IMG/VR virus record: IMGVR_UViG_2617270923_000003 | Coordinates: 1-64,000 of that record | Length of the DNA stretch: 64,000 nucleotides | Origin: a virus | Reading direction: 5' to 3' (one strand) | Part shown: positions 5,961 to 45,873 of the stretch, in pieces | Position numbering within the stretch: position 1 is the stretch's first letter | How the letters are laid out: every line of letters begins with the position of its first letter | Notes under the pieces: generated by a model | Database searches by the model: none | Seen by the model: the letters and a program-made list of their open reading frames with translations, nothing else | Told to the model about the DNA's origin: nothing | Position numbers and translations under genes: made by a program

Positions 5961-6150
5961 CTAGCGGGACCCGGCGCGGGGTGCGCATACGACCTTCGAA
6001 CCGGGCCTGAGCATATTCAACTCCTTTTTGACGACCGCGGCGACCAGCCGGCATTCGTCGCGGCTCGTAAACACAGCATTTGCGCGCTTGATATCGGGCT
6101 CTGGACCCGTGAAGTTGAAAATCAGCAGGATTGTGGTGATCTTGAGCATG
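5961..6150 (-). CDS. hypothetical small protein with hydrophobic N-terminus (62 aa)
   Basis: ATG at 6150 preceded by AAGGAGG RBS. Confidence 0.4.
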
Positions 6151-6218
6151 TTGTGCCTCCTTCTAACCAGAAAAGCCCGCACGAGGCGGGCTTCTCCAGT
6201 CGACTGCGGGATCCGCGG

Positions 6219-7118
6219 TTACTTGATCGCGTTGAAGAACGGGATCGCAGAGTTCGGCGTCATCGTGGTCGGCAGTTCGCCCTTCCACTGCAGAGCCTTC
6301 TGGTATTCGATCAGGTTCGGGTTGGCAGACAGAGCGTCGGACTTGGCCTTGATGGCAGCAGCGTCGGCTTCGCCGATAAGGCGATTACCTTCAGCGACAG
6401 CCTTGGAGTCAGCAAGCTTGCCGGCTGCGTTGGCTTCTGCGACCGCGAGCTGGCTATCAGCCTGGGCCTGCGCATTCGTCACCGCAATTTCAGCGTTGAT
6501 CTTCGCCTGCAGCGCCTTCTGTTCGAGCTTCTTGACCTCGACCTCCTGGGTCATCTTGGCTTCGATATTGTCCTCGTAGCTATCCGGCAGCGAGAAGTTT
6601 TCGATCTGCGCCGAGAGGATCTCGACAGGTCCATCGATGTTGCGGATGCGCTTGGTGAATTCGGCGCCAAGCTCGGCGCGCTTCTGGATCGCGGTGTCAG
6701 CGGTGAACTGTCCAAAGACCGTTTCGAGCGTTTCACCGACGCGACGCGTGACCATCTGGCTCACTGCCTGTTCGACAGTGCCGTAGCGGGTATAGATCTC
6801 CAGGACGGATTCATTTGCAGGCTTGGCGCGGTAGCCGATCGAAACGCGGTGAACGGTCGCGGTCTGACCATCGCGGGTGTAAGCCTTGATCTCGTCAAAG
6901 GTGATCATGCCGTCGCGAAGGGAAACTTCCTTCGTATCGTCGACCCAGGGTGCCTTCCAGTGGAAGCCGGCATCAGCCACACCGGTCACGGCGCCGTTGC
7001 GAAGGACGATCGCCTTCTCGCCTTCATCGACAGTGTAGAAGGAGCCGCCTACGACGCCGAGAGCGACGAACAGGGCGATACCGGCGATAATGCCAGAGAA
7101 AATCTTTGCGGGGCTCAT
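6219..7118 (-). CDS. SPFH/band-7 (prohibitin/HflC-like) membrane protein
   Basis: N-terminal TM helix, then an SPFH core (EKAIVLRNGAVTG...HWKAPW...RDG..ITFDEIKAYTRDGQTATV) and a long Ala/Gln/Lys-rich coiled-coil typical of the HflK/C and stomatin families. Confidence 0.8.
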   Translation of the reverse strand: MSPAKIFSGIIAGIALFVALGVVGGSFYTVDEGEKAIVLRNGAVTGVADAGFHWKAPWVDDTKEVSLRDGMITFDEIKAYTRDGQTATVHRVSIGYRAKPANESVLEIYTRYGTVEQAVSQMVTRRVGETLETVFGQFTADTAIQKRAELGAEFTKRIRNIDGPVEILSAQIENFSLPDSYEDNIEAKMTQEVEVKKLEQKALQAKINAEIAVTNAQAQADSQLAVAEANAAGKLADSKAVAEGNRLIGEADAAAIKAKSDALSANPNLIEYQKALQWKGELPTTMTPNSAIPFFNAIK

Positions 7119-7120
7119 GG

Positions 7121-7243
7121 TTATTCCTTGTCTCCTTTAGACTTGTCGGAACGATTGGTGAGAAACAGACTCGTGCGGTAGACGCCAATGGCGAACACGA
7201 CGAGAAGGACGGCAAAGCCGAGGAACATCGCGAGCTTTCCCAT
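7121..7243 (-). CDS. micro-ORF, single-TM peptide (40 aa: MGKLAMFLGFAVLLVVFAIGVYRTSLFLTNRSDKSKGDKE)
   Basis: Absent from the ORF track (<60 aa). TGATG-coupled to the upstream micro-ORF. Its stop is followed by AAAGGAGACAAGGAATAAcc-ATG of the SPFH gene. Confidence 0.45.
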   Translation of the reverse strand: MGKLAMFLGFAVLLVVFAIGVYRTSLFLTNRSDKSKGDKE

Positions 7244-7383
7244 CACAGGAGAGCCTTGATGCCTTCGACCAGGCCGGCGAGGGCGAGAGCGCCCGTGAAG
7301 ACGATGGCGACGATGACAGCACCGCGGTTACCGTTGTATGCCTTGCCGTCGTGGTTGATGGTGTTCATGTCTTCAGGGCGCAT
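7243..7383 (-). CDS. micro-ORF, single-TM peptide (46 aa: MRPEDMNTINHDGKAYNGNRGAVIVAIVFTGALALAGLVEGIKALL)
   Basis: Lies directly downstream of the promoter cassette at 7406-7432 and is first in the operon with the SPFH gene. Confidence 0.45.
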   Translation of the reverse strand: MRPEDMNTINHDGKAYNGNRGAVIVAIVFTGALALAGLVEGIKALL

Positions 7384-7405
7384 GTCGTTCTCGCTTTCTG
7401 TGAAC

Positions 7406-7432
7406 TAAGTAACGACTTACTTATATCGCTAC
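7406..7432 (-). promoter_or_regulatory. promoter/operator cassette copy (TAAGTAAcgacTTACTTA..TATCGCT variant)
   Basis: Upstream of the micro-ORF/SPFH operon; followed by the CAGGTAGTGAGCGG upstream box. Confidence 0.45.
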
Positions 7433-7463
7433 ACAGTTTGGAGTGCTGCAGGTAGTGAGCGGC

Positions 7464-8909
7464 TTATGCAGCCGCCTGCACCTCGGCGTTGACGCGCTGC
7501 ATGGTCGAAGCGACAAAGCCAACGAGCGACTTGTGGGCGCGATCGGTAATCTGCTCCCAGGACTGGGTCGTGATGAAATCGCCGTTGCGGAAGACGACCT
7601 GGAGCTGGTTGTCGATGCCCTCGGGCAGCGCGTCCTCGCGGATGGTTTCGAATTCGCCGTCATTCATGACCACGGCGACACGACCAGCCTTGGAAGACTT
7701 CGAGGGATCCGTCGCGGGCTTCTTCTGCACGTCCTGCCAGCCATTTCCGAAGTCGATGGCATTAGCCTTCATGGCGAAGCGCTGATCGTCGCGCTTGTGG
7801 GACTGCAAGAGCCCACCACCCATGCCAAAGGCGATATTGTCGATGGAGAAGCCTTCCATCAGCATCCGGGCAACCAGGGCAGCAACAGACTGCGGCGTCA
7901 TGCCGTCGCCCTGGATGACGCGCACATGCTTGTCGAGAACCTTGAACCCCTTCGAGTTCGTGGTCCCGCCGAAGATATCCCAAAGCTTCTTGATGACCGC
8001 AACGGGCGTTTCGACCGGATCGCCGGAGTCAGGACGGATAACGAGCGTGCCGTCGATATTGAGGATCTTCTCCTTGAGCTCGTCGCCGAAGATGTTCTCG
8101 ACCGCGTTGAACAGGTCGTAACTGTCGGAGACGACCGAGAACAGACCGTGACCGAAGTTGTCGATCATATTGGAGTAGGCATCCGCTTCGCGGTCCTGAC
8201 CCCAGCTCGTCATGGTCGAATGCTCCGACGCCGGAATGGAGAAGCCGGGCATCTCCTGAGCATCGTAGTAGTGCATCGCGCCCTGAATGGCTTCGAGGGT
8301 GTCGGTGCCCTTGAAATTGACCAGGTGAGCCATACCGCCCAGCATCGCGGATTCGCCAGACGAGACTCCACGGGCGCCGAAGTCATGCAGCTTGAACGGG
8401 ATCTGACCATCCGGATCGTCGGATGAGCGCTTCAGGCCGTCATAGATGATCGCCTTGGTGATGAAGGAGATCGTCGCGACAGAGGTCGGATACCAGATGG
8501 CGCGCAACAGCGCGGTTTCGACGAAGCTCGTAAGCCACGGAACCTTCGGGTCGGTGTTCTTGACCTGGATCATCGGCGTGCCGCGCGGAACGAACGAACC
8601 TTCCGGCAGAGCCTGAATCTCAATCGGCAGGTAGCCGTCATGATGTTCAAGGATATAGCGCCAGCCTTCCTCGTTGAACGGCAGGCCGTGCTTAAGGCAA
8701 AGCTCCTTGGCTTCCACGATGTCCGCTGCCTGAATCGGCATCGTCAGGTATTCCGACAGAAACGCCTGCAAACCGAAGAAGACGGAGAACTGCGGGCGAT
8801 CCGACTGCTTGCGCGCCTCGATGTAGGAGGAGATGAACTGCGCGCCGGGCGGATACTGGTTGAAATGGGACTGCTTATAGCTGTCCGTGGACAGGATGAT
8901 GTTCCTCAC
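7464..8909 (-). CDS. nadV: nicotinamide phosphoribosyltransferase (NAMPT/NadV)
   Basis: 481 aa; matches NAMPT along its whole length (STDSYK...HDFGARG...GTDT...SIPA.EHST...IRPDSGDP...QGDG). Confidence 0.85.
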   Translation of the reverse strand: MRNIILSTDSYKQSHFNQYPPGAQFISSYIEARKQSDRPQFSVFFGLQAFLSEYLTMPIQAADIVEAKELCLKHGLPFNEEGWRYILEHHDGYLPIEIQALPEGSFVPRGTPMIQVKNTDPKVPWLTSFVETALLRAIWYPTSVATISFITKAIIYDGLKRSSDDPDGQIPFKLHDFGARGVSSGESAMLGGMAHLVNFKGTDTLEAIQGAMHYYDAQEMPGFSIPASEHSTMTSWGQDREADAYSNMIDNFGHGLFSVVSDSYDLFNAVENIFGDELKEKILNIDGTLVIRPDSGDPVETPVAVIKKLWDIFGGTTNSKGFKVLDKHVRVIQGDGMTPQSVAALVARMLMEGFSIDNIAFGMGGGLLQSHKRDDQRFAMKANAIDFGNGWQDVQKKPATDPSKSSKAGRVAVVMNDGEFETIREDALPEGIDNQLQVVFRNGDFITTQSWEQITDRAHKSLVGFVASTMQRVNAEVQAAA

Positions 8910-10731: not shown

Positions 10732-12186
10732 TTACGCAGCCTCTGCGGGCTGCGTATCCTTCTTGGGCTTCTTGCCCTTGTGCCACTTCATTTCGCCGGC
10801 CATGATCGAGCCACGCGGAAGAATCCGGTCGGCAATCTTGGCGAGTTCGAACTTTTCAATCTGAGCTTGCACCTGGCTTGCGTTCTTGTAGGCGCTCGGC
10901 AGTTCGGATACGTCCGGATCACCGGTGTAGAAGCGGACATCAAGGCCGGCCGTTTCACGATCCATGATCGCCTTGATCGCATTCGGGCCCAGACCGCGCG
11001 TGTCGCCGAACTCTTCCATGAGGCGCTTGATATGCGCCGTGCGGGAGAGATTGCGCCCGGCACCATGCGGTGCGAACCCGAGAGCGTTCTCGTTGTTCTT
11101 GTGCTCGGCGATCAGGATGGGCTGTGCCATATTCATCGGGATCAGCGTCAGACCCTGGTCATCCTTTGAGAAGCCCTTGAAGGACGGCGTTGCGCCCTTG
11201 GCGTGGTAGAACAGCCCGTCGGAGCGCTGAAAGACAAAATTGTGCTCGTTCCAGAACTGCCCGATGATCTGATTACCGAGCCGCTTGGCGACCAGGTTGT
11301 GAATGGCGAAGTGGTTCATCTTCGTCCAAAGGCGCAGCGCCTGAAGAGCCTGCCAGTAATCCTGGCCCACCTGGCTATCCGCCTCGATCCAGGCATTGTG
11401 CAACGGGATCCTCGGGGCGACGATCCGCGTATGGCGCTCGGCTGCAGCCTTGCCCCGCTTGTAGAGCTGACCGCCCAGCCCACGAGAGCCATGATGAGTA
11501 ACGATCGCCATCTGACCGGTCGATTCCAGCTCGCCCACGTAGAAGAAGTGATTGCCGTCACCCTGGGTCATGAAGTGGTGGATGGCGTAATCCTCCAGCC
11601 CTTTCAAGAACGGGTTGGCTTCGAAACCGTTGACCAGGCTCACAAGATCCTTGTGCTGACGAACCTCAGACGCCGTGCGCTTGCCGACGCCGAAGTGGGT
11701 CGCCTTCATGGCGATATCAAGCACATAATCGACCGGCGTGTCGCGCTTGAAGACGGAGATCGCCATCGAGCAGCAGATGTCGGCCGAGTGGAAGCCCGGA
11801 TGGATCGCGTTCTTGGTCGCAACCACGCCACCAACAGGAATCGTGCCTATCGCAGAGCCTGACGGGCAAGCGTCAGGCATGACTGCGCCGCGCTCGATAG
11901 TCGGAACGCGCATTAGCGCATCCATGTGGGCGAGGACGCCGGCGACGTTCGCCTTCTCGTCGTCACCTTCCGGCTCGATGAACTGGCCGAACGGAATGTT
12001 GTTGGTTCGCAGCGGCACACCTTCCTCGACAGCCTTGGCTGCCTGGAGCGGAAACAGCGCCTGAATGATCTCCTTGTCGGTCTTGCCGTCCTCGCGGAGC
12101 TGGCGAGCCAACGGCAGCGCTTCCTTGAACCATGCGCCAGGCTGTAAGCCCCACGCGACGAGCGTCTTGCCCGAGATATTACTCAT
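10732..12186 (-). CDS. rtcB: RtcB-family RNA 3'-phosphate ligase
   Basis: 484 aa with the conserved RtcB motifs (QGDGNHF, THHGSRGLG, FAPHGAGR, His/Cys metal ligands). Confidence 0.85.
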   Translation of the reverse strand: MSNISGKTLVAWGLQPGAWFKEALPLARQLREDGKTDKEIIQALFPLQAAKAVEEGVPLRTNNIPFGQFIEPEGDDEKANVAGVLAHMDALMRVPTIERGAVMPDACPSGSAIGTIPVGGVVATKNAIHPGFHSADICCSMAISVFKRDTPVDYVLDIAMKATHFGVGKRTASEVRQHKDLVSLVNGFEANPFLKGLEDYAIHHFMTQGDGNHFFYVGELESTGQMAIVTHHGSRGLGGQLYKRGKAAAERHTRIVAPRIPLHNAWIEADSQVGQDYWQALQALRLWTKMNHFAIHNLVAKRLGNQIIGQFWNEHNFVFQRSDGLFYHAKGATPSFKGFSKDDQGLTLIPMNMAQPILIAEHKNNENALGFAPHGAGRNLSRTAHIKRLMEEFGDTRGLGPNAIKAIMDRETAGLDVRFYTGDPDVSELPSAYKNASQVQAQIEKFELAKIADRILPRGSIMAGEMKWHKGKKPKKDTQPAEAA

Positions 12187-13714: not shown

Positions 13715-14506
13715 TTAGCTTGCGGCAGGTGCCGGCACCAGGCTGCGCAGACGCTCGGCAATCTTGCTGTCCGAGCGGAGCGTAAGCGTCTGCCCGGAGC
13801 GATCAGCGATCTTGACCGTAGCGAAGAGGTTCATGATCTGACCTGACTGCGAGCGCGCGGTGCCTTCGCCAAGGCCGGAAGCCTTGTAGGCGCCGACGAC
13901 ATCAGCCGAAGTCATCGAGCCCTTGCTGTCGAGCAGCTTGAATGCCACCATCACGTAGACGGACGGCTCCTTGCCGACGGACAAAGCGGTGAACAGGTTG
14001 TCGAACTTCTCGGCGACCTTTACCTGAGCCGGCAGGAGCTTCATGGTCGTCTCACGGGCGGTCTTGAGGTCTTCGTCCGACATCGTGGACGGGTCGCCCG
14101 AGAGCACGAAGAACTCGTCGGCCACCTTGGAGATATCGCGAGGCGTGCGCGTCACGCCACTGGATGCTGCCTTACGCTCGCCCTTGGCCTTCGGCCGGAC
14201 GGCTGCAGTCGGCGCCGGCAATTCGGTCGTGGTAACGGAAGATGACTTCTGCTCCTCATAGATTTCGTTCTTGGCGAGCGCCAGGTCGAGATCGGCGAGC
14301 TCCTCGCTTTCGAGGACGGTCGGCGCGACCGCGGCTTCTTCCGCTGCTTCGAGTTCGGCTTCGTCTTCCGGCGTTGTCTCGTAGATCACGCCTTCTTCCT
14401 CACCCTCGGACTGAATGTCGAGGTCTGCGAGAACGGCGTCGAGTGCGTCGAGGTCTGCGGTATTCGGCATGGCGTTTTGCTGGATCGTTGCGAGTGCGGT
14501 GCTCAT
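13715..14506 (-). CDS. hypothetical protein with a strongly acidic N-terminal half (263 aa)
   Basis: Long ORF. The Asp/Glu-rich N-terminal segment could be a DNA mimic or scaffold; no family was recognised. Confidence 0.5.
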   Translation of the reverse strand: MSTALATIQQNAMPNTADLDALDAVLADLDIQSEGEEEGVIYETTPEDEAELEAAEEAAVAPTVLESEELADLDLALAKNEIYEEQKSSSVTTTELPAPTAAVRPKAKGERKAASSGVTRTPRDISKVADEFFVLSGDPSTMSDEDLKTARETTMKLLPAQVKVAEKFDNLFTALSVGKEPSVYVMVAFKLLDSKGSMTSADVVGAYKASGLGEGTARSQSGQIMNLFATVKIADRSGQTLTLRSDSKIAERLRSLVPAPAAS

Positions 14507-14520
14507 CGCTGCATTCCTTT

Positions 14521-14567
14521 CTAAGTGACTGCGTTACTTGATGAATTTGTTATAACGCAGTCACTAT
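14521..14567 (-). promoter_or_regulatory. variant cassette: 13-bp inverted repeat AGTGACTGCGTTA...TAACGCAGTCACT flanking a TTATAA box
   Basis: Upstream of the acidic-protein gene (start 14506). The palindrome sequence differs from the common TAAGTAA type. Confidence 0.4.
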
Positions 14568-17253: not shown

Positions 17254-18822
17254 TCAGCCGTTCGGCTTCAAGCCACGAGCGTCGAACAGCTTCTTGAGGG
17301 TCTTGCGGCAAATATGCAGCTCAGCCTCGATCTGACGGTTCGACTTGCCTTCGGCGTGCAGCACCAGGGCGAGGGTATGCTTTTCGGGCAGTTCCTTCTC
17401 GGCCTTGGCCTTTTCGACGACCTTCTTCGACTTCTCGACCTTCTCAGGCGTCGGCTTGGCAGTTCCCTTGCCGATCTTTGACTCAGGGGAGCTCACAGGC
17501 TCGCTCGGAGCAGTCATTGCAGCGCTGATAGCGGCCGAGAGATCGCCGCTCGCAGCGGCCTTCTGAACGGCCTTGCTCGGCTTCTTCTGACGCGACAGTT
17601 CGACCTCATCCACGCGCTTGCGCAGATCGCGGATCGACACGTCGACCTTCTCCTCGATCACCTCGGGGCGATCATCGAGCGCCTTGGCAACGCCGGAGGT
17701 TCCGACATCGGCACGCGCCATCTTCTTCGCACCTTCGACCGGCGTGACGGTGACGTTTCCACCGTAGGCCGAGCCGATGTTGACGATCTCAAGGATCGAC
17801 GTGTGATTGCCCTTGATCACGTCCGCGAGCAGCTTGGATGCCTTCTCGTGTCCGGTCATCGGCTTGTTGCTGCGCAGCGTCGGGTGAACGTCAGCCGGCA
17901 GGACCGCGACGATGTGATAGCCCTTGGCGCGCATCTTGTTCGGCTCGCCGGGCGGCACAGCGATCACGTCTTCCGGCGCGACCTTGACCAGGGTGATGAT
18001 ATCGCCACTGAAGCCGGAGAGGTAGCCGCGCCGTGCGATATGCAAGCCCGTCGAGCATTCGTTGCGCCGGTTCGGGTCGACCAGCTTCTCGTCCATCTGC
18101 ACGAAGGAGCCGAGCTTCTGCGTCACCTTGCGCGAATGGCAATCGACGAAGCCGTTGGACGTGGACTGCAGCACCTTGTAGGCGACGATCGAGCCGTCAT
18201 CCGCGATCGGCAGGTCGCCCTTGCTCATGAAGTTGAGCAGCTCCTTGATAGTATGCGAGCGGCTGTCGATCACAGAGGCGATGCGCTCCATGAACTTCTG
18301 GAAGCCTGCGGCGTCCTCGCCGTGATTGATCGCATCCATGTAGGGCGTCAGCGCCTCGACACCAGGGATGACCTTGTTGTTGACGACGGCGTGCAGTTCT
18401 TCCGGCTCATATTCGACAGCCGGACCCTTGTCCTGCGGAACGTAGCGCGACGACACCGACGGCTTCGTCAGCTCCATGACCGGCGTGGGAGCCGGCGTCG
18501 GCTTGACGCTGCCCAGAACGACAGTCGTGGTCTTGGGCTCCGGCTCGCTCGGCGTGCCGCCCAGCAATGCCTTGAGCTGGGAGAAGCGGCCGCGCACGAA
18601 CCTCACGACGCCGTTGGTCTTCTCCTCGATAGTCTTCTCGATGGAGAAGGTCGCGAGGTCGATTTCCATGTGCTCGCCGCGCTTGAGAGCTTCGACCGTC
18701 TGATCGAGGATCTCCTTCGTGCGCTTGGTGTCCTTCTTGAGGTTTAGTTCCTCCCCGTTGTCGAGGAAGAGGGTAACGCCGGAATTAGATGCGATGGCGC
18801 TGAGGATCTTTACCTTGCTCAT
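17254..18822 (-). CDS. rIIB: rIIB-like protein with a C-terminal HTH-like segment
   Basis: Lies immediately downstream of the rIIA-like gene with an ATGA overlap. AAGGAGG RBS precedes the MSKVK start at 18822. Size and position match T4 rIIB. The C-terminus (LALVLHAEGKSNRQIEAELHICRKTLKK) resembles a LuxR/sigma-70 region-4 HTH. Confidence 0.55.
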   Translation of the reverse strand: MSKVKILSAIASNSGVTLFLDNGEELNLKKDTKRTKEILDQTVEALKRGEHMEIDLATFSIEKTIEEKTNGVVRFVRGRFSQLKALLGGTPSEPEPKTTTVVLGSVKPTPAPTPVMELTKPSVSSRYVPQDKGPAVEYEPEELHAVVNNKVIPGVEALTPYMDAINHGEDAAGFQKFMERIASVIDSRSHTIKELLNFMSKGDLPIADDGSIVAYKVLQSTSNGFVDCHSRKVTQKLGSFVQMDEKLVDPNRRNECSTGLHIARRGYLSGFSGDIITLVKVAPEDVIAVPPGEPNKMRAKGYHIVAVLPADVHPTLRSNKPMTGHEKASKLLADVIKGNHTSILEIVNIGSAYGGNVTVTPVEGAKKMARADVGTSGVAKALDDRPEVIEEKVDVSIRDLRKRVDEVELSRQKKPSKAVQKAAASGDLSAAISAAMTAPSEPVSSPESKIGKGTAKPTPEKVEKSKKVVEKAKAEKELPEKHTLALVLHAEGKSNRQIEAELHICRKTLKKLFDARGLKPNG

Positions 18823-21191
18823 GCTGCCTCCTTGAGGGCGGTGGTGTTGGTGTTGGCTGCGGACTTCTTGGCGGACTTCTGCTTGGCGCGGCGCTGCAGG
18901 AACTTGATCGTTTCGATCAGATCGTCGGTGAACTGATCGCCCCACTCGGACACCCGCTCATTGAGGAACCAGGCGCCGCAGATCGGATTGAGGTAGCGGA
19001 AGTGATCCTCGGCCTTGGAGATGCTCAGCGGCTTGAAGGTCTTGCCGCACGCCTTCTTGAGGCCGTCCTTAGCCTGGGTGACGATGGTCTTGGTCTCGTC
19101 CGACATGGACTCAGCGCTGGAGAGGAAGTCCCAGATCAGCTTTGCTTCCTGATGCAGCTCGCCGGGATTTGCCCGGTCGGGGAACAGGAGCTTGGCAATC
19201 CGGGGTTCCTTCTTAGCCAGCTTGAGCGCAGCCTCGACGGTCGAGGCGTGATAGGCGCTGCTACCATCGCGGATGAAACGGTCGTGCCGGATGGTCTCGC
19301 CGTAGACGACCTCGCGCTTCTTGGTGAGTTCGACCAGGCGGGCAGCCAAGACCTCGTGCAGGTTGCGGCAGCCGGCCTTCTTGAGCTTCTCCTCCTGGCC
19401 CTTCGTCGTGATGAGCGCGGTCTTCGGATAGAGCTTCATGATCTGGGCGCGGTATGCCTCGTTGAACGGCATCCGGGCGATCTCGTCGCGCTGCCAGGTC
19501 ATCATGTAGAAGGACGGATCCTCGCAGGACGCCGGATGGTCACGGTCGCGGCTCTTGTCGCTGATGTCTTCCAGGATGAAATACTTGTCGGCGCTGGTCT
19601 TGCGCACGGCAGGCTTGCGATTTGCCTTGGCCTCCTCGTAATCGAACAGCTCCAAGCTGATCTTGAAGTGGCCGCACAGTTCCTGCAGACGCTTGAGGTT
19701 CTTCTCGGTCCACTGGCGCATGACCATGCCGGGCACGTAGGTATTCTTGTCGTGGCCGTAGAACTCGCGACCCTTGAGCGCGAGCATCGGGCGCAAGTCG
19801 CGCATGTTGCGGGCAACGCACAGCACCGGATAGACGTGCCCCGAGCGTTCGTATTCGCCGATCCGCTTGGTCTTCGGTCCCGGATAGTCGTGGCGATGCC
19901 TGTAAATGTCGAACAGCATCAGCTCCTTGAGCAGGCCCATCTTCGACGCGATGCGCAGTGCCGCCGTAGAGGTGCGCTTGAAGTGCAGCTCCTTCGCATT
20001 GCCGAAGTTCTGCGGAGCGCGCCGGTAGAACCGGCGATCGTCGCGGAACATCTTCTGGGCGATCTTGTAGAGCTTGCGGCGCGTGTCGATGCCGATCCAA
20101 ACGTGGTGATGACCGTGCGTGGAGACCGCGTGGTCGGCGATCATATCGGGCGTCGACAGGATTCCTGCCGGGTAGTCGCTGCGCGGGCTGATATAGTCGT
20201 CCAACTGCAGACGGCTGCGGCTCTCAACGATCGAGGTGAGCAACCGCATGGTAGCGGGATCCAGCGCCCGCGTGATCGTCTTGATCGCCTTGTTGAGCAG
20301 GCGGTTCAACGTCTCGTCGGTGAGCGGCGAGAACGACAGCGCTTCACGCGACGGCGTGACGCCGATCGAGTTCGGAGGCGGGATCAGCACCAGGATCGAG
20401 TTCGTGCCACAAAGATTGATCGCCTCGACGGCGAGCCGGGTCATGGCGTCGTCAGTGTTGGTCAGCGGATACATGACCGTGCCGTAGAGGACGTAGACGC
20501 GGCCTTCGTTGAGCCCGATGTTCGGGATGACGCCGAACTCGTGCTTACGGGCCTCGGTGAAGTCGAAGCGCTCAAGCGGCACGCCGTTCAAGGTAGCAAG
20601 CATTCCGCCCTGCTTGACGACAGCGCGAATGTGGTTTTCGAACTCGTAGCGGTCCTTGGGCTGCTGGATCGGGATCGTGACCGTCAGACCGGTTTCGGTC
20701 GAAGCGGTGCGGAACATCTCGCGCATTTCCGGCTTGCCGTCGGTCGCGACACCACCACGGGAGATCGCATGGACGGTCTTGAGGCCGTCGTGCTGGTTGA
20801 CGATGGTGAAGTGGTCCGTCACGGCGAAAGGCGCCTTGGATCCGAGGCCGAAGCCGCCCGTCTGGTTCTCGTCCTTGACCTTGGTGGACTTGCCGTAGAT
20901 GCAATAGATCGGGTGCAGCAGCTCCAGCGGAATGCCAGGCCCGAAGTCGCGGATCTTGATCTCGGTTTCAGTGACCGTGATTTCGACCGGAACGTCGGTC
21001 TTGCCGACCATAATGTGTGCATCCCAGGCGTTGCAGATGGTCTCTCGCATCGCCGCGCGCTTCTTGTCGCGGTAAATCTTGTCGGAGAGGAGGGCATAGA
21101 GCTCAGCGGAGTCGTCCATGCCGAAGGCTTTGGCCTCGCCACCGCCGATGACGGCATGTGTGTCGAGTTCTGCGATCGTTGAAACCTGCAT
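18819..21191 (-). CDS. rIIA: rIIA-like protein (N-terminal GHKL/HATPase_c domain)
   Basis: 790 aa. N-terminal Bergerat ATPase motifs (E..NAWDA, DFGPGI, GGFGLGSKAPFAV), as in T4 rIIA. Confidence 0.7.
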   Translation of the reverse strand: MQVSTIAELDTHAVIGGGEAKAFGMDDSAELYALLSDKIYRDKKRAAMRETICNAWDAHIMVGKTDVPVEITVTETEIKIRDFGPGIPLELLHPIYCIYGKSTKVKDENQTGGFGLGSKAPFAVTDHFTIVNQHDGLKTVHAISRGGVATDGKPEMREMFRTASTETGLTVTIPIQQPKDRYEFENHIRAVVKQGGMLATLNGVPLERFDFTEARKHEFGVIPNIGLNEGRVYVLYGTVMYPLTNTDDAMTRLAVEAINLCGTNSILVLIPPPNSIGVTPSREALSFSPLTDETLNRLLNKAIKTITRALDPATMRLLTSIVESRSRLQLDDYISPRSDYPAGILSTPDMIADHAVSTHGHHHVWIGIDTRRKLYKIAQKMFRDDRRFYRRAPQNFGNAKELHFKRTSTAALRIASKMGLLKELMLFDIYRHRHDYPGPKTKRIGEYERSGHVYPVLCVARNMRDLRPMLALKGREFYGHDKNTYVPGMVMRQWTEKNLKRLQELCGHFKISLELFDYEEAKANRKPAVRKTSADKYFILEDISDKSRDRDHPASCEDPSFYMMTWQRDEIARMPFNEAYRAQIMKLYPKTALITTKGQEEKLKKAGCRNLHEVLAARLVELTKKREVVYGETIRHDRFIRDGSSAYHASTVEAALKLAKKEPRIAKLLFPDRANPGELHQEAKLIWDFLSSAESMSDETKTIVTQAKDGLKKACGKTFKPLSISKAEDHFRYLNPICGAWFLNERVSEWGDQFTDDLIETIKFLQRRAKQKSAKKSAANTNTTALKEAA

Positions 21192-21206
21192 TGTCGTCGT
21201 CTCTCC

Positions 21207-21237
21207 TATGTAATTGCTTACTTATCTCGTTATAGCG
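21207..21237 (-). promoter_or_regulatory. promoter/operator cassette copy (TATGTAAttgcTTACTTA...TTATAGCG)
   Basis: Upstream of rIIA and downstream of the tRNA island. Confidence 0.45.
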
Positions 21238-21277
21238 AATGACGCGTTGGAGTGCGTCAGGTGACGAGTGGATAATC

Positions 21278-21354
21278 TGGTTGGGGATTAGAGGAGTCGA
21301 ACCTCAACCTTGTCTGACTCGTCAGCCAGTTGCTCTGCCCTGAGCTAATCCCCA
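21278..21354 (-). tRNA. tRNA-like gene with a normal acceptor stem, D-arm and T-arm (GGTTCGACTCC) and encoded CCA, but an aberrant anticodon arm
   Basis: rc sequence TGGGGAT-TA-GCTC-AGGGCA-GAGC-A-ACTGGCTGACGAGTCAGAC-AAGG-TGAGG-TTCGACT-CCTCT-ATCCCCA-A-CCA. The anticodon region is the palindrome CTGAC-GA-GTCAG, so a 5-bp stem with a 7-nt loop cannot form. Confidence 0.4.
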
Positions 21355-21370
21355 ACATGGACACGATTTG

Positions 21371-21647
21371 ACGAAGGGTGCCTCTTAGTTCCGGGATCGA
21401 ACCGGCACACCCGTTTGTAACTGGCCTCGGACGGAGCAGGGAGCGCTGCTGTGGTCGCGATTGCTCTCGTCTAACCGCGCCGCCGAAGATGCACCAGCGT
21501 CCGATTATGCCTCGTCAATTCGAGGATTATTCCCCTAAGCCGGCCTTGTCGGCACTTGCGTAACTCCAACCCGTAAAGGTCTTGCGGAGAATGCGGGGAT
21601 GCCTGGGCTAAATCTACCTCCCAGGCTGAATCGGAGCACCCTTCGTC
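21371..21647 (-). ncRNA. ~277-nt structured RNA element closed by a 12-bp long-range helix, with a tRNA T-arm-like hairpin (CCGG-TTCGATC-CCGG) near its 3' end
   Basis: 21371-21382 (acgaagggtgc..) is the reverse complement of 21635-21646. Internal perfect hairpins include GCCTGGG/CCCAGGC, CCTCG-AATTGA-CGAGG and GAGCA...TGCTC. The element sits between two tRNA genes. Confidence 0.3.
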
Positions 21648-21654
21648 AAAAAGA

Positions 21655-21727
21655 TGGCCGGGAGGCAAGGAGTCGAACCTCGACCGCTGCCCTCCATAGG
21701 CAGTGCTCTGCCCTAAGCTACCTCCCG
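21655..21727 (-). tRNA. tRNA with anticodon UGG (Pro) and an unusual A33; encoded CCA
   Basis: rc sequence CGGGAGG-TA-GCTT-AGGGCA-GAGC-A-CTGCC-TATGGAG-GGCAG-CGGT-CGAGG-TTCGACT-CCTTG-CCTCCCG-G-CCA. Cloverleaf is clean; the anticodon loop is UAUGGAG. Confidence 0.55.
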
Positions 21728-21980
21728 GTATTTATGGTGGTGATGAGCTCCTATACCCCTCTGGCCGACTGCCAGTGATATCCGCGGTGTCAATCGCGGC
21801 CAGGGCTCCTAAGAGCTCATCACCGAAACGTTTCCCCGTTCATCCGGCCTATCAGATGGCTACTTTCGCAGCGTCCACGATCTACCCAGCGCTAGACTCA
21901 GGCGGTGGCGGGGCTTGCCTTGCGGAGCGGTGTTCAGACTCCACAAGTTCGGCGCACTTCGTTGCCCATTCGGGCGAAAC

Positions 21981-22068
21981 TGGAGATCCGGGTCGGATTC
22001 GAACCGACGAGTCCAAGAAAGGAACGGGATTTGCAGTCCCGCGCGTTCGACCACTTCGCTACCGGATC
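21981..22068 (-). tRNA. type-II (long variable arm) tRNA with anticodon GCA (Cys codons) and U73 discriminator; encoded CCA
   Basis: rc sequence GATCCGG-TA-GCG-AAGTGGTCGAA-CGC-G-CGGGA-CTGCAAA-TCCCG-TTCCTTTCTTGGACTC-GTCGG-TTCGAAT-CCGAC-CCGGATC-T-CCA. It has a 3-bp D-stem with an 11-nt D-loop and a 16-nt variable arm, as in Ser/Leu/Tyr tRNAs. The anticodon is that of Cys. Confidence 0.6.
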
Positions 22069-22298
22069 GGATGGGCTGGGACGCCAGCGACTAGGCACTG
22101 GTCTGGACCGCGGCTCCACCCTACTACCTGGGACGCTAACGCGCGCCAGGCCGTCCCAACTCGTTGAATTAACGTCCCTGGGAGTAGAAAGGACGAAACA
22201 CCTCCCAGGGACTCGCCGGGTCGCTACTCCGGTGAACAGGCGATAGGCGTGGGTTATGACGCCTCGTTTTAAGTCGCCGCTTGCGCGGCTTGATTAGC

Positions 22299-22367
22299 AT
22301 CGGGAGCGTGGAGTCGAACCACGACCGCGGATTTCAAGCCCGCCGCACTGCCCTGTGCTACTCCCGC
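22299..22367 (-). tRNA. short type-I tRNA with anticodon UGA (would read UCA Ser codons), G1-A72 mismatch, no encoded CCA
   Basis: rc sequence GCGGGAG-TA-GCAC-AGGGCA-GTGC-G-GCGGG-CTTGAAA-TCCGC-GGT-CGTGG-TTCGACT-CCACG-CTCCCGA-T. 69 nt with a 3-nt variable loop. Confidence 0.5.
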
Positions 22368-22528
22368 ATATCGACCCTAATCAGTTCTCGCTCTGCTGAT
22401 TACCCGATGCGTTCGGGACCGTCTGGGCAAAGGTGGAGCCCGATGCTGTCGAGGCGGCTTCAATGATCGGCCACACACCGGGCTCCTAGACGCCAACCCG
22501 ACGGCTGTCGGCGTCTATTCGTCAACCC

Positions 22529-23002
22529 TTACAGGCCGAAGCGAACTTCGCGGCCGCGAGGAACGATACCGCCCTGGTGAAAACGACCACCGCGGCCGGC
22601 GATCGCAGCAGCGAGAACGGAAGCGATGCCGGCAGCAGCAGCGAAGGCGTTCTCACCACCGACGTTGTAAGCTTCGTGGCCGCGCTTCAGCAGCGCCTTG
22701 AGATCGTCGTGATCGAGGTCTTCGTCATCGGCGATCGCAGCGAGGTCTTCGCGAAGGCCCTTCAGGAGCTTCTTCTGCGCCTTCACGGCCTTGTAGCGCT
22801 TGTCGATGTCGGCCTGCATGTTCAGGACTTCGCCGATAAGATGGCGCTTTTCGGCGACACGCTCGGCTTCGACGCGTTCGGCTTCGATGCGCGCGGCTTC
22901 TGCGGCAGCTTCTTCGCGTTCCTGCTTGATCGAGTTGAGCGTCGGGTCGATCTTGACGACGGTTGCGACAGCGGTATCAGCGGCCTGATTTTCGTAGGTC
23001 AT
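22529..23002 (-). CDS. hypothetical coiled-coil protein (~157 aa from MTYENQ)
   Basis: ATG at 23002 with AAGGAAC RBS. Central Glu/Ala/Arg-rich coiled coil; Gly/Ala-rich C-terminus. Confidence 0.5.
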   Translation of the reverse strand: MTYENQAADTAVATVVKIDPTLNSIKQEREEAAAEAARIEAERVEAERVAEKRHLIGEVLNMQADIDKRYKAVKAQKKLLKGLREDLAAIADDEDLDHDDLKALLKRGHEAYNVGGENAFAAAAGIASVLAAAIAGRGGRFHQGGIVPRGREVRFGL

Positions 23003-41878: not shown

Positions 41879-42511
41879 TTAGAAAGCGCCGAAAATCTCG
41901 TTCTGCTGGTAGTGCTGTTCGCGCACCTCAGCCTCGGCCAGTTCTTTTTCGAGCTTGCGCTTGTGGTTCTCCATCTGGAAAGCAAGCTCGCGCACGTGGC
42001 GCATCTTCTCTTCACGCTGGAGTTCCCTCTCGGCCGCGATATCTGCCGGCGAGACGGCGATGCCATGCGAGGCCAGCCCGAGCTTCTTCTGCCATTCATC
42101 GATCGCGGCCAGACGTTCGCTTTCCTGCATGTCGTTCCACTCCTCGATCTCAAACTGTTCGAGCACCTTGTCGCCGTCGTTCATGACGGACCGCAGCATC
42201 GGGTGCCTACCCTTCGGCTGCCACCAGTCCGGTGCGGGCTGGTAGTAATACTGCGTCGGCGTCAGGGGCATTCCGCGCCATGTCATGAACGTGCCTAAGA
42301 CCCTGGCGTTTTCGTTAGGCAACCTCATCTTGCCGTAGGTCATAGGAACGGGCGTGGGATCAGCCGTGGGCTTGCTCTCGACCGGCTCTTCGCCCACAGC
42401 GGACAACGACTCCAAGATCCGCTGAAGGAAGCCCTTCTTGGGCTTCTCCAACGCGGTCAGGCTTGCAACATAAGTCGGACGCATGATCTCAATCCCTCCG
42501 TTCCAAATCAT
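41879..42511 (-). CDS. hypothetical protein (210 aa) ending ...QQNEIFGAF; ATGA-coupled downstream of dnaE
   Basis: ORF with a Trp-rich central region and a C-terminal coiled-coil. Confidence 0.5.
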   Translation of the reverse strand: MIWNGGIEIMRPTYVASLTALEKPKKGFLQRILESLSAVGEEPVESKPTADPTPVPMTYGKMRLPNENARVLGTFMTWRGMPLTPTQYYYQPAPDWWQPKGRHPMLRSVMNDGDKVLEQFEIEEWNDMQESERLAAIDEWQKKLGLASHGIAVSPADIAAERELQREEKMRHVRELAFQMENHKRKLEKELAEAEVREQHYQQNEIFGAF

Positions 42512-45500
42512 GACAGGCAGTCCGCGACGGCTGCGAACACCTGATTCATGTTTTCCTGCTTGTCCGGGTCGTGATAGATTTCACCCGGAGAGAAGCCGAT
42601 GATGATGTTGGCGTCATACTTCTTGGAGTAGATGACCTTGCCGGCCTGCTCTGACGCCTTACCCTTGAAGTCCGGGAAGAAGTGACGCACGGTCGTCGAG
42701 CCGAGGAGCACGATGACGGGCGGCTGCAACAATTCGATCTCCCGCTCCAGGTAGGGCTCGTAGGTCTTGATCTCGTCGGGCGTGACCTGCTTGCCGCGCT
42801 TCGGACGCTTGATGAGCGCCGTCCAATAGGCGTTGTGTCTATCGAGGGACGCCGTTTCGATCGCTTCGACCACTGCGTTATTCGAGATCGAGAAGCCCAT
42901 GATCCCGCCCGTGTCCTCCTCGTTGCCGGGGGCATCGGAGATGATCATGAAGTCGGCGCTCTTGCCGAAGAACGGCTTGACCGGATATCCGTCTGCAGTC
43001 GTGGCCTTGGGCCCATGCGCTGCGCGGTATTCGTCCACGAGCTCGCCAAGGGCTGCCTTCGTGTCCTTATCCTTGTTCAAGTCGTGGTCGACCGGCACAT
43101 GCGCGGCGATCAGGCCCGGCAGGAGTTCGATCTGGTCCTTGATGCGGCTCGGGTCGTTAGCAGGCGCCTGACCAGACTCAATGCGAGAGAAAGCACCCAC
43201 CAGGTCGAGCGCCTCCTGGACCCGCTTGTTACAGACGCGCTTCTCCACCCGAGACAGGAAATCGTTCTTATCGACAAACGGGCCGGCCTTGCGGGCTGCG
43301 AGGATCGCGTTCGTTGCCTTCTCGCTCAGACCCTTGATGCGCTGGAGCGGCATGACGAGGCGGACAGACGTTGCCATCTCGAAGCGGTTGGTCGAGATAT
43401 TGATGTCAGGCATCGAGACCTCGATCCCGAGCGCCTTTGCATCCCGGATGATACCCGTCAGCTTCTCTTCCTTCTGCACGGTCAGGGCTGCGGCGTAGAA
43501 CTCGGCCGGATAGTAGGTCTTGAGATACATCGACTGATAGGAGATCAGCGTGTATTCGACCGAGTGCGACTTGTTGAAGCCGTAGCCGGCGAAGCCTTCG
43601 ATCTTGTCGAACAGAGCGCCTGCCCAATCCTCGGTGCAGCCGATCGTGGCGACACAGCCGTCGCAGAACTTCTTCCGCTCCTTCTTCATTTCCTCCGGCA
43701 GCTTCTTGCCCATGATCTTGCGGAGCTTGTCAGCAGCGGCGCCGGAGTAGCCGGCGATCACCTGGGAGATCTTCATGACCTGCTCCTGGTAGACGATGAC
43801 GCCGAAGGTTTCTTCGAGCACCGGCTCCATCAGCGGGTGATCATATTCGATCTCCTCATTGCCCTGCTTGCGCAGATAGAAGCTATCCATCATCCCGGAC
43901 TCGATCGGGCCAGGACGATAGAGCGCGGTGCAAGCCGTGATATCTTCGAAGGTGATGACGCCAGTCGAGCCGAGCTCCTTCAAGAGCCGGCGCATACCTC
44001 CGGACTCGAACTGGAAGATGGCAGTCGTGTTCGCCTTGGCGAAGTTCGCCAGCACCTTCTCGTCATCGAGAGGAATGCGGTTCAAGTCGATGCGCTTGCC
44101 CGTGTTCTCGCGGATATATTCGAGCGCCAGGGTCATATGGTCGAGCGTGTTCAGGCCGAGCACGTCCATCTTGACCAGGCCCTGGTCCTCGACGATGCGC
44201 TTGTCCCAGCACACGACGTTGCCTTCCTTGCGCCGTTCCACGACCGCGCGATCCACAATGTCTACACCGGCGACAATGACACCGCCTGCGTGCTGACCGA
44301 AGTTGCGGATCGTTCCTTCCAGGCGCTCCATCATCGGATAGTGCGTCGGATAGTTGTTGGCGAAGTCGTCGATCTCCTTGACCTGCTTGCGAGCCTCGGG
44401 GAGGGGAACGTTCTGCCCGTGCAGCTTCGGCACGAACTTGGAGACGGAGAAGTCCTTTTCGGGGATGAGCGTCACGCGGCCGACATCGCGGATCGCGGAT
44501 GCGGAGCCGAGCGTGCCATAGTTATTGACGCCTGCGACACGCGCTGCGCCATACTTCTTGGTCAGATATTCGAAGACCTCGTGCCGGCGCTCGGACATAA
44601 AATCGAGGTCGGCGTCGGGCAAGTCGATACGTTCGGGATTGATGAAGCGTTCGAACAGGAGCCCGAAGCGGATCGGGTCGCACTCGGTAATGCCCATCAG
44701 ATACGCGACGAGGGATCCGCCCACGGAACCACGACCAGGGCCAACCATGATGCCGGACTTCTTGGCAAACTGCACCACGTCCTGCACGAGCAGGAAGTAA
44801 CCCGAGAAATTGAGGCGCTTGAGGGTTTCGAGTTCATAGGCGAGGCGAGGCTTATAAACCTCGACCAGCTCCTTTGCGCCCGGCTGATGACCGAAGATCG
44901 GCGCGTCGAAGCGCTCCTTCCAGCCCTTCTTGCACTCCTCGACCACGGCGGCGAACTCGTTCGGCGCCATAACCGGCAGTGACACGTCTGCCTTCTTCCA
45001 TTCATATTCGACCAGGTCGACTAGCTCAGCCGTATTGAGCAGCCCCTGCTTGAAGCAATCAGCGACATACGAAGCAGCCATGCCGCGCTTGACCAGGTGG
45101 GCTACCGCCTTCTTCATTTCGCCGACGAGCTCGCCCGAGCCCATGATGTGCATATCGCGGTTGAAACGCGACTTGAACCAGCCATCGGTGATCTTGTTGT
45201 TGTCGGAGATCGCCGTCATAATTTCCTGGGTGTCGGCTTCGCCCTGGCCGTAGAAGGCCGGACGCACGACGATCGGCTTGATGTTCTGCCGGGCGAACTC
45301 GCCAAGCGCGATCTGATTAAGCCGACCGTAATAGGGCGTGCTAACCGGGATCAGCGGCGCATACAGATGCGTCACGCGGGTTTCCAGCTCATCCACGATC
45401 TTCGTGTATTCGGGGTGCTCCAGGATGCTGTGAGCGTCACCGAGGACGATAGCGAGGTCATCCGGCGCGATCTTCGCCAGCTCCTTGTAAAGATCCTCGA

Positions 45501-45873
45501 AGCCGAGCTTGGCCTCGTAGTAGAAGCGGTCGTCCGAGTTGGCGAGCGTCAAGAGACGGAAGATCGCCTTCATGCCAACTTCCTTGAGCGCGTAGACGGT
45601 CAGGAAGTAGGAGCGCGGCATATCCTTCTTTTTCTCACCATCGCCCGGACGCCAGGTCGGATCATCGGACAGGCGCAGCCGGCAACCAATCACAGGCTTC
45701 AGACCCTCGGCCTTGGCCTTATTCGTAAAGTCGATCATGCCAGTAATCGACATGGTGTCGGTCATCGCGACGGCCTTGGCTCCGGCGTCGACGGCGTTCT
45801 TAATCAGACGCTTGGTTGTGAGGATGCTTTCGCCGACTGAGAAATCAGTCCGCGCTGCAAGGATCGAGTGCAT
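42508..45873 (-). CDS. dnaE: DNA polymerase III alpha subunit (DnaE-type C-family polymerase with N-terminal PHP domain)
   Basis: 1121 aa, full-length similarity to bacterial DnaE: PHP His/Asp motifs, palm catalytic Asp region (GPGRGS), fingers, and OB-fold. Confidence 0.9.
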   Translation of the reverse strand: MHSILAARTDFSVGESILTTKRLIKNAVDAGAKAVAMTDTMSITGMIDFTNKAKAEGLKPVIGCRLRLSDDPTWRPGDGEKKKDMPRSYFLTVYALKEVGMKAIFRLLTLANSDDRFYYEAKLGFEDLYKELAKIAPDDLAIVLGDAHSILEHPEYTKIVDELETRVTHLYAPLIPVSTPYYGRLNQIALGEFARQNIKPIVVRPAFYGQGEADTQEIMTAISDNNKITDGWFKSRFNRDMHIMGSGELVGEMKKAVAHLVKRGMAASYVADCFKQGLLNTAELVDLVEYEWKKADVSLPVMAPNEFAAVVEECKKGWKERFDAPIFGHQPGAKELVEVYKPRLAYELETLKRLNFSGYFLLVQDVVQFAKKSGIMVGPGRGSVGGSLVAYLMGITECDPIRFGLLFERFINPERIDLPDADLDFMSERRHEVFEYLTKKYGAARVAGVNNYGTLGSASAIRDVGRVTLIPEKDFSVSKFVPKLHGQNVPLPEARKQVKEIDDFANNYPTHYPMMERLEGTIRNFGQHAGGVIVAGVDIVDRAVVERRKEGNVVCWDKRIVEDQGLVKMDVLGLNTLDHMTLALEYIRENTGKRIDLNRIPLDDEKVLANFAKANTTAIFQFESGGMRRLLKELGSTGVITFEDITACTALYRPGPIESGMMDSFYLRKQGNEEIEYDHPLMEPVLEETFGVIVYQEQVMKISQVIAGYSGAAADKLRKIMGKKLPEEMKKERKKFCDGCVATIGCTEDWAGALFDKIEGFAGYGFNKSHSVEYTLISYQSMYLKTYYPAEFYAAALTVQKEEKLTGIIRDAKALGIEVSMPDINISTNRFEMATSVRLVMPLQRIKGLSEKATNAILAARKAGPFVDKNDFLSRVEKRVCNKRVQEALDLVGAFSRIESGQAPANDPSRIKDQIELLPGLIAAHVPVDHDLNKDKDTKAALGELVDEYRAAHGPKATTADGYPVKPFFGKSADFMIISDAPGNEEDTGGIMGFSISNNAVVEAIETASLDRHNAYWTALIKRPKRGKQVTPDEIKTYEPYLEREIELLQPPVIVLLGSTTVRHFFPDFKGKASEQAGKVIYSKKYDANIIIGFSPGEIYHDPDKQENMNQVFAAVADCLS

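Follow-up and report, generated by a model that had tools for sequence, protein, structure and literature searches.

The 64,000-nucleotide (nt) stretch of viral DNA analyzed here, referred to below as the window (IMG/VR record IMGVR_UViG_2617270923_000003, positions 1 to 64,000), is part of a lytic Rhizobium phage whose kin are RHph_X66, B1VFA, and RHEph10. Within a cluster of transfer RNA (tRNA) genes, it carries an element that is a structured non-coding RNA of ~284 nt, encoded on the minus strand at positions 21367-21650. We consider it nearly certain that the element is a real gene for a structured RNA of a new family outside Rfam 15. The family is real but rare, nine copies having been found. 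A preliminary description of the locus, made from the letters of the window, had named a new structured non-coding RNA, for example a tRNA-like one, as one explanation of the element. This proposal was borne out by the lack of any Rfam family match at E ≤ 10, by eight homologues, by strong covariation, and by a canonical T-arm in an outer junction that appears to keep tRNA order.

The element is closed by a perfect 15-nt inverted repeat (TTTGACGAAGGGTGC at 21367-21381 and GCACCCTTCGTCAAA at 21636-21650), which is the single 15-mer repeat of this kind in the window; 0.03 would be expected by chance, as judged from Markov-shuffled windows. The repeat had been reported earlier as exact 12-nt arms. 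It is real, but the coordinates were off by one (GACGAAGGGTGC occupies 21370-21381 and its complement 21636-21647), and the true length is 15 nt. Perfect 12-mer repeats within 400 nt are expected 3.3 times per Markov copy of the window, so a match of 12 base pairs (bp) alone would be within chance. The folding energy was mildly unusual (z = -2.5 for the minus strand and -3.2 for the plus strand) and did not distinguish the strands. Such mild values on either strand make the single sequence suggestive and no more; the decisive support is comparative.

Homologues, covariation, and searches against known families

Comparative alignment, suggested in the preliminary description as a check on the element, brought up homologues and a fold that covaries. 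Homologues were found at eight other places: in two GenBank phages, three IMG/VR viral contigs, and three metagenome contigs. In the GenBank phages, Agrobacterium phage JP1 and Rhizobium phage RHph_Y1_11, partial blastn matches fell in unannotated gaps, and nothing is annotated at the RNA locus in either record. Alignment of these gaps with the element revealed long invariant blocks and a closing helix changed on both strands. Exact-motif scans yielded the copies in viral contigs L004, L005, and L006 and in metagenome contigs L140, L142, and L143; a further copy in L141 is identical to that of L004 and was not counted as distinct. A covariance model of the 5′ core (R1) scored the nine distinct copies at 92-171 bits and matched none of ~180 other loci drawn in by looser patterns. 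These patterns were ACGCAAGNNCCGACAAGG, scanned on viral contigs and on genome contigs (at least 120 genome loci), and CCGACAAGGNCGGNTTAG and TTACGCAAGTN{12,20}TTAGRGG, scanned on viral contigs; the extra loci were discarded as chance matches. No bacterial copy was present among the at least 120 genome-contig loci listed for ACGCAAGNNCCGACAAGG, and a blastn search of plasmids gave no match to the element. All members that could be placed come from phages of Alphaproteobacteria or from contigs syntenic with such phages, and the length of the RNA in the family is 277-370 nt.

The common fold was first of all supported by RNAalifold, which, on an independent MAFFT alignment of five members, returned 53 pairs, 30 of them with compensatory changes. 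In the nine-sequence alignment of the 5′ core, 96.9% of cells pair, compared with 35-43% when the partner is slid by 1-3 columns. Both sides change in 18 of the 37 core pairs, and none of 500 shuffles reached any of five measures. Fitting to the model biases the nine-sequence alignment towards structure, but both the slid controls and the independent RNAalifold result speak for a genuine covariation signal. Internal helices covary with G·U intermediates, and the terminal helix (P1) and the P7 arm covary in every member.

P1 also indicates the strand from which the RNA is read. In the seven full-length members, it comprises 15-23 bp of unrelated sequence. Its 139 positions include 127 Watson-Crick pairs, 7 G·U pairs, and 5 mismatches (one A·C and four others), and the G of the G·U pairs is on the 5′ strand in all seven cases. 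The presence of seven G·U pairs versus one A·C implies that the helix works as RNA made from the window minus strand, and not from the other strand.

Known RNA families were sought with Rfam 15, using the gathering score on the whole window and E ≤ 10 on positions 20900-23000 of the window and 5900-8000 of L004. Such a scan had also been suggested earlier. In the window it matched only four tRNAs, and nothing on the element, at either threshold; the models of transfer-messenger RNA (tmRNA), group I and group II introns, RNase P, YrlA, ROOL, and GOLLD all failed to match the element up to E ≤ 10. ARAGORN reported neither a tRNA nor a tmRNA at 21367-21650. A positive control was provided by L004, where the alpha_tmRNA model scored 121 bits at 7115-7477, apart from the element homologue at 6120-6465. 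Detection of this two-piece tmRNA indicates that the same tools are able to see such RNAs in this setting. The earlier judgment that a tmRNA is unlikely thus stands, since both programs are silent on the element and yet find a true tmRNA in L004. The silence of ARAGORN means that there is no tag peptide, and a reading of the sequence confirmed that no CCA follows the closing helix. A literature search found no description of the element's RNA, though its coverage was incomplete and it is no proof of absence.

Architecture of the RNA

The RNA, described below as read from the minus strand, folds into two nested four-way junctions. The outer junction joins P1, a domain closed by helix Px, the P7 arm, and a T-arm-like hairpin, which corresponds to the cloverleaf order acceptor, D, anticodon, T; we hold with moderate confidence that it keeps the tRNA order. 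The inner junction, closed by Px, holds P2, the branched P3-P4-P5 domain, and P6. The 5′ strand of P1 (UUUGACGAAGGGUGC, 21636-21650) pairs with its 3′ strand (GCACCCUUCGUCAAA, 21367-21381), as indicated by both the perfect inverted repeat and the pairing in the family. After one unpaired base, Px closes the conserved inner domain: its 5′ strand, CCGAUU (21629-21634), is partnered by AAUCGG (21501-21506), and this window pair compensates for the CGC-A-UGU and ACGGCG of other members.

Within the inner junction, P2 (21601-21626) has a 7-bp stem, GCCUGGG/CCCAGGC, and a 12-nt loop; both sides change in five of its seven pairs, and pairing holds in 100% of cells. The P3-P4-P5 domain (CCCCGCAUUCUCCGCAAGA ... 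GGAGUUACGCAAGUGCCGACAAGGCCGGCUUAGGGG, 21532-21598) contains the most conserved sequence of the family, with invariant blocks and covarying helices. It includes a GCAA mini-hairpin, and P4 carries a variable insert that is 18 nt long in the window and reaches ~75 nt in L004 and L005. P5 (21539-21553) consists of a 4-bp stem, GCCG/CGGC, and a loop, ACAAGGC, that is invariant but for its last base (ACAAGGN); seven members have G-C as the first stem pair, one has U-A, and another C-G. With its 4-bp stem and a loop that starts with A and contains GG, P5 may resemble a D-arm. P6 (21510-21525) is the hairpin CCUCG-AAUUGA-CGAGG, in which three of four pairs change on both sides and the loop GAAUU(G/A)AC is kept in all members. 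The stems of P2 and P6 are the perfect hairpins GCCTGGG/CCCAGGC and CCTCG/CGAGG that had been noticed in the DNA, and both are present as described.

The P7 arm (21421-21497) occupies the anticodon-arm position of the outer junction. It is built of P7a (CUGG/CCAG), a 5-nt bulge (UGCAU), P7b (CUUCGG/CCGAGG), and a variable distal part of 52 nt. Across members, P7a takes the forms CUGG/CCAG, CGGA/UCCG, UCCG/CGGA, and UUCG/CGAA, and covariation extends to P7b; every bulge reads U-N-N-N-U, and the distal part ranges from 29 to 84 nt. A joiner (UUACAAACGGGUGUG, 21406-21420) with the conserved core (A)AA(C/G)GGGUGU leads to the T-arm-like hairpin, CCGG-UUCGAUC-CCGG (21391-21405), which was correctly recognized in the preliminary description and has the tRNA T-loop consensus nucleotides G53, U54, U55, C56, A58, and C61. 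The string CCGGUUC.A.CCCG is invariant in all full-length members, and as the hairpin does not covary, its support comes from conservation only. Between the hairpin and the 3′ strand of P1 lies a conserved, single-stranded, A-rich linker (AACUAAGAG, 21382-21390; consensus AAC.AAGA), 8-9 nt long in the family. The gap, given earlier as 15 nt, is actually 9 nt in the window. A candidate pseudoknot, CACG...CGUG, was dropped, because CGUGG and ACGGCG are the 3′ strands of P7b and Px, respectively.

Relation to known RNAs, possible function, and alternatives

The element has the consensus T-arm of tRNA (RF00005), but its T stem does not continue into a 7-bp acceptor stem, and it has neither a D-arm nor an anticodon arm that ends in a 7-nt loop. 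No member has CCA after P1, the distal part of P7 is branched as well as variable, and a domain of ~130 nt takes the D position. The tRNA-like domain of tmRNA (RF00023, RF01849, and RF04321, none of which matched in the window) likewise combines a terminal helix with a large insertion at the anticodon-arm position and has its canonical T-arm close to the 3′ end, and tmRNA, too, is carried by some phages of Alphaproteobacteria, such as L004. The element differs in having no tag reading frame and no CCA, nor the combination of such a frame with an aminoacylatable tRNA-like domain, and its conserved domain is in the D and not the anticodon position. Moreover, its T-arm is not stacked on the terminal helix, because the 9-nt linker intervenes; no such linker exists in tRNA or in the tRNA-like domain of tmRNA.

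The RNase P RNA models (RF00010 and RF00011) gave no match at E ≤ 10, and conserved regions (CR) I (GAGGAAAGUCCGG) and V (ACAGAACCCGGCUUA), which form P4 of that RNA, were not found in the element. Two likenesses to RNase P that had been seen by eye were discarded. The segment GACAAGGCCGGCUUAGGGG, compared with CR-III and CR-V, has no model match and is a local covarying hairpin, and the GGCUUAG of P5/P3, compared with CR-V, pairs locally with covariation.

The tRNA cluster of phage T4 encodes two stable RNAs, species 1 and 2 (rnaC and rnaD), which are ~120-140 nt long, have an unknown function, and are processed with the tRNAs. The likeness is that of a stable RNA within a phage tRNA cluster, and the window phage carries rIIA and rIIB too. 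When the phage collection was searched with the RNA cluster of the window, which includes the element, and with two homologues, only Rhizobium, Agrobacterium, and Sulfitobacter phages were matched, and not T4; no search started from the T4 RNAs themselves. The element joins the known group of elaborate phage RNAs of tRNA islands and tRNA-like non-coding RNAs, with an architecture of its own.

Our favoured reading, to which we give about an even chance as a package, is that the product of the element would be a stable, trans-acting, partial tRNA mimic that is cut out of a tRNA-array transcript and represents a new family; in the mimicry mechanism itself, our confidence is low. Partial mimicry is suggested by the fit of the T hairpin to the full tRNA consensus, and not merely to the generic T-loop motif, by the tRNA order of the outer junction, and by the fact that the gene travels with tRNAs and tmRNA. 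It is also suggested by the comparable modules of tmRNA, YrlA, and Yrn1, which meet tRNA-recognising proteins (PMC4201824). The RNA would be co-transcribed with the neighbouring tRNAs and released by tRNA-processing enzymes, with RNase P at the downstream tRNA setting the 3′ end and 3′ trimming taking place at the upstream tRNA; RNase III may cut too where P1 nears ~20 bp. The terminal helix would then shield both ends from exonucleases. In trans, a tRNA-recognising factor of the host or the phage would be engaged by the T-arm, which might dock on the P5 loop with its GG as in the tRNA elbow; the specific function would come from the conserved inner domain.

Several observations weigh against this reading. 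In JP1 and RHph_Y1_11, the RNA lies by itself amid hypothetical genes, and no tRNA is present within 3 kilobases (kb) of it, so tRNA-linked processing cannot be general. Scans for consensus promoters and terminators gave nothing useful. Neither the T hairpin nor the P5 loop varies, and hence no covariation bears on the elbow contact. The 9-nt linker prevents coaxial stacking of an acceptor stem on the T-arm, the feature that most tRNA-binding enzymes read. With no anticodon loop, a decoy role versus anticodon nucleases has no obvious basis. The covariation of Px comes from one sequence, that of the window, which makes its support moderate. Finally, no conserved protein neighbour or candidate partner was seen across the loci compared, and nine members give a co-occurrence analysis no power.

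A bolder form of the tRNA-mimic reading is possible but rather doubtful. The RNA might be a tRNA-shaped scaffold whose D-arm is replaced by the ~130-nt conserved domain, acting as a catalytic or ligand-, protein-, or tRNA-binding module. It might serve phages of Alphaproteobacteria in manipulating the host tRNA or translation apparatus or in disarming a tRNA-directed defence. An RNA-only assembly like those of ROOL and GOLLD could also be formed, and the element would be the first of a new class of phage RNAs.

Among the alternatives, the RNA could be an autonomous, "ornate" one, i.e., a ribozyme or an RNA-only assembly in the ROOL/GOLLD manner, in which the T hairpin is just a structural T-loop module. 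This is unlikely. Many joiner and loop nucleotides are invariant, two multi-helix junctions are nested, and the P6 loop holds a self-complementary AAUU that could form a kissing contact; at the same time, no motif of a known self-cleaving ribozyme was recognised, and the T hairpin goes beyond the generic T-loop motif in fitting the full tRNA consensus. ROOL is ~580 nt long. ROOL and GOLLD are structured RNAs of phages and prophages, often located by tRNA islands, and of unknown function (PMC12286853). The copies in the window, L004, L006, and L142 share this phage setting near a tRNA island, while those in JP1 and RHph_Y1_11 do not. Neither sequence nor model similarity to ROOL (RF03087) or GOLLD (RF01998) was found, at the gathering score or at E ≤ 10. 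The element's RNA is two to three times smaller (277-370 nt in the family vs. >800 nt for GOLLD; PMC12286853), is closed by a terminal helix, contains a junction in tRNA order, and has so far been found only in phages of Alphaproteobacteria.

We also weighed a Y-RNA-like RNA, in which the terminal helix and the adjoining 5′ strand would bind the Ro60/Rsr ring of the host and the tRNA-like module would recruit a partner such as PNPase, allowing the phage to hijack or block host RNA quality control or repair. We regard this as quite improbable. The layout is that of Deinococcus radiodurans Yrn1, where a T-arm accompanies a terminal stem placed in the acceptor position (Chen et al., PMC4201824). 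More generally, bacterial Y RNAs (YrlA, RF02553, and Yrn1) hold their 5′ and 3′ ends in a long stem, contain a tRNA-like module with a canonical T-arm, can share a transcript or precursor with tRNAs (PMC4201824), and occur in phages too. However, they are 80-130 nt long, which makes the element's RNA (277-370 nt) 2-3 times longer, and have no counterpart to its ~130-nt branched domain in the D-arm position. The nearly invariant D and T stem-loops of YrlA are matched by a T stem-loop but not by a YrlA-type D stem-loop, and the YrlA model is silent on the element, including the L004 scan, at E ≤ 10. The Ro60 contact motif close to the Y RNAs' 5′ end, GNCGAAN0-1G (PMC4201824), is fitted by GACGAAG at 21641-21647 of the window, but GNCGAA is absent from the other members, and P1, where the family sequence GG(U/C)CCG at the top recalls GGUCCGA, is free in sequence. 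The reported YrlA candidate in Rhizobium etli (PMC4201824) implies that the host genus may have Ro60. The element is not beside a Ro60 gene: Pfam detected no TROVE/Ro60 domain in window open reading frames (ORFs) of at least 300 amino acids (aa) or in the tested neighbours in JP1, RHph_Y1_11, L004, L005, and L140. The phage encodes RtcB, with which the RNA shows no linkage.

A cis-acting leader, i.e., a riboswitch or translational operator for the downstream gene, is very improbable. In RHph_Y1_11, the 3′ strand of P1 does enter the ribosome-binding site of the next gene, 9 nt ahead of the start codon, and in L142 a denV-like gene starts 14 nt past the RNA. However, the downstream genes vary (rIIA in the window, denV in L004 and L142, and unrelated hypothetical genes in JP1, RHph_Y1_11, and L140), a tRNA gene intervenes before rIIA in the window, and a terminal helix of 15-23 bp is too stable for a switch.

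The preliminary description had also raised a tRNA interrupted by a large insertion or intron. In the form weighed here, splicing would remove one or two insertions or introns and the phage RtcB would join the exons; we give this almost no credence. The outer junction in tRNA order with its canonical T-arm would suit such a gene, but the conserved part of the family is the would-be insert, the would-be exons are variable, and the sequence of the closing helix is unconstrained. The T-arm is set off from that helix by a 9-nt linker, and no conserved anticodon loop, D-arm, or CCA was seen. The 5′ strand of P2 in the window happens to resemble a D loop (AGCCUGGGAG), a string that is missing from the other members. 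Group I introns in tRNA genes of the same bacterial class (Agrobacterium tRNA-Arg and Azoarcus tRNA-Ile) are likewise ~200-250-nt structured inserts in a tRNA-like frame. The element has no group I core (RF00028; no match at E ≤ 10 on 20900-23000), and its flanks form the 15-23-bp helix and make no tRNA. We know of no bacterial or phage splicing endonuclease for sites of this kind. RtcB is indeed encoded ~9 kb away (10732-12186, minus strand), as had been pointed out, but the hint drawn from it fails, because the distributions of the RNA and RtcB among phages do not match: a tblastn search with RtcB matched 15 Rhizobium phages, among which RHph_Y1_11, which has the RNA, is not found, whereas RHph_X66, B1VFA, and RHEph10 have RtcB and no RNA.

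That the element acts as DNA, as a miniature inverted-repeat transposable element, a cruciform, or an origin, is scarcely credible in spite of its 15-23-bp terminal inverted repeats and its sporadic, insert-like spread among unrelated phages, since these repeats differ completely between members where a transposase site would be conserved, the window has no second copy, G·U is tolerated on one strand only (7 vs. 1), and the internal helices covary through G·U intermediates.

Phage tRNA islands repeatedly host elaborate RNAs of unknown function (GOLLD, ROOL, phage Y RNAs, and the T4 stable RNAs), and the element is one more. It is a practical subject, being compact (~280 nt) and having a secondary structure backed by covariation, with a canonical T-arm in an otherwise non-tRNA body. 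Since the family is present in cultivable phage-host pairs (RHph_Y1_11 and JP1), it is open to deletion genetics, pull-downs, and cryo-electron microscopy. If the RNA does mimic tRNA to engage a host factor, it would represent a new way for phages to intervene in tRNA biology. Otherwise, Rfam gains a new family and annotators a warning, the JP1 and RHph_Y1_11 records being blank at the locus.

Genomic setting and neighbouring features

Genes around the element are nearly all on the minus strand. The rIIA counterpart (18819-21191, minus) was named through the annotated RHph_X66 gene and gave only a sub-threshold HATPase_c match in Pfam; the rIIB counterpart (17254-18945, minus) was named in the same way and has no Pfam match. 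Genes for dUTPase, thyX, and ribonucleotide reductase (RNR) lie beyond. A gene-free spacer of ~1.3 kb, located between the rIIA counterpart and a 173-aa ORF, carries four minus-strand tRNA genes detected by ARAGORN and Rfam. These are an unassignable tRNA-like gene ("tRNA-???" by ARAGORN; 21278-21354) with an 8-nt anticodon loop and an Rfam tRNA score of 33.2 bits, tRNA-Pro(UGG) with an encoded CCA (21655-21727), tRNA-Cys with anticodon GCA (21981-22068), and a tRNA with anticodon UGA (22299-22367). The element fills the gap between the first two and shares their strand, in agreement with the earlier placement between tRNA genes. P1 begins 4 nt past the encoded CCA of tRNA-Pro, and the element ends 12 nt ahead of the next tRNA.

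The surroundings of the homologues vary. In L142, the order is tRNA-Pro(UGG), a tRNA-like sequence, the RNA, the denV-like gene, and rIIA. In L004, it is tmRNA, tRNA-Met, tRNA-Pro(UGG), 467 nt of non-coding DNA, the RNA, and denV. In L006, a syntenic relative of the window, tRNA-Thr precedes the RNA. The syntenic site of RHph_X66 has just tRNA-Cys, which indicates that the RNA is an accessory insert. The RNA is thus an accessory gene that usually rides in the phage stable-RNA cluster. The neighbouring proteins shared across loci (RNR, thyX, dUTPase, rIIA, and denV) reflect synteny between related phages.

Some of these loci have further peculiarities. The tmRNA of L004 is of the two-piece (permuted) alphaproteobacterial type; it is encoded on the minus strand, upstream of the RNA homologue by ~650 nt, and its tag is VNDNDESVPVLRLAA. 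The same cluster contains two more non-coding stretches with no Rfam match, at 6466-6932 (467 nt) and 7478-7790 (313 nt). L004 also has an unassignable tRNA resembling that at 21278-21354 of the window. In L006, the closest syntenic relative, the copy (14448-14554) leaves the consensus right after GGCUUAGG, where the 3′ strand of P3 is expected, before the locus ends; an insertion may interrupt the copy, or the contig may be chimeric.

Two other conserved RNA elements were seen in the spacer region of the window, both on the minus strand. At 21739-21824, between tRNA-Cys and tRNA-Pro, an 86-nt three-way fold with a 15-bp closing stem has a counterpart of 83% identity in Rhizobium phage B1VFA (L003, 3001-3094) and no Rfam match. 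Compensatory changes are present in its basal stem (GGUGAUGAGCUCUUA/UAGGAGCUCAUCACC vs. GGCGUUGAGUGCGUA/UAUGCGCUCAACGCC) and in its inner hairpin. At 22174-22212, a perfect 11-bp hairpin (GUCCCUGGGAG...CUCCCAGGGAC) encloses a conserved loop, GUUUCGUCCUUUC; in RHph_X66 (L139, ~17307-17364), both stem strands are altered (GUCUCUGGAAGG/CCUUCCAGAGAC).

The tRNAs themselves have unusual features. The tRNA-Cys(GCA) is 88 nt long and has a 14-nt insertion in its variable region, and the B1VFA version is 84-87 nt long. A long variable arm is usual for Ser, Leu, Tyr, and selenocysteine tRNAs and not for Cys tRNAs, and the tRNA-Cys(GCA) of the window might be charged with an amino acid other than Cys. 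The tRNA with anticodon UGA, which reads the Ser codon UCA, is only 69 nt long and has no long variable arm.

Elsewhere in the window, there is only a 140-aa ORF where RHph_X66 carries a gene for a 536-aa protein (L139, 4308-5918) that adjoins RtcB and has no Pfam match and no TROVE domain. An ORF at 52533-53714 runs on the plus strand, against the direction of most genes, and has matches to the RP-C N- and C-terminal domains (E = 2e-37 and 1e-16) of the plasmid replication protein RepC, a finding unexpected in the replication module of a lytic phage. The minus-strand gene at 42508-45873 encodes a DNA polymerase III alpha-like protein of 1121 aa with a C-terminal domain of the uracil-DNA glycosylase superfamily (residues 969-1104).

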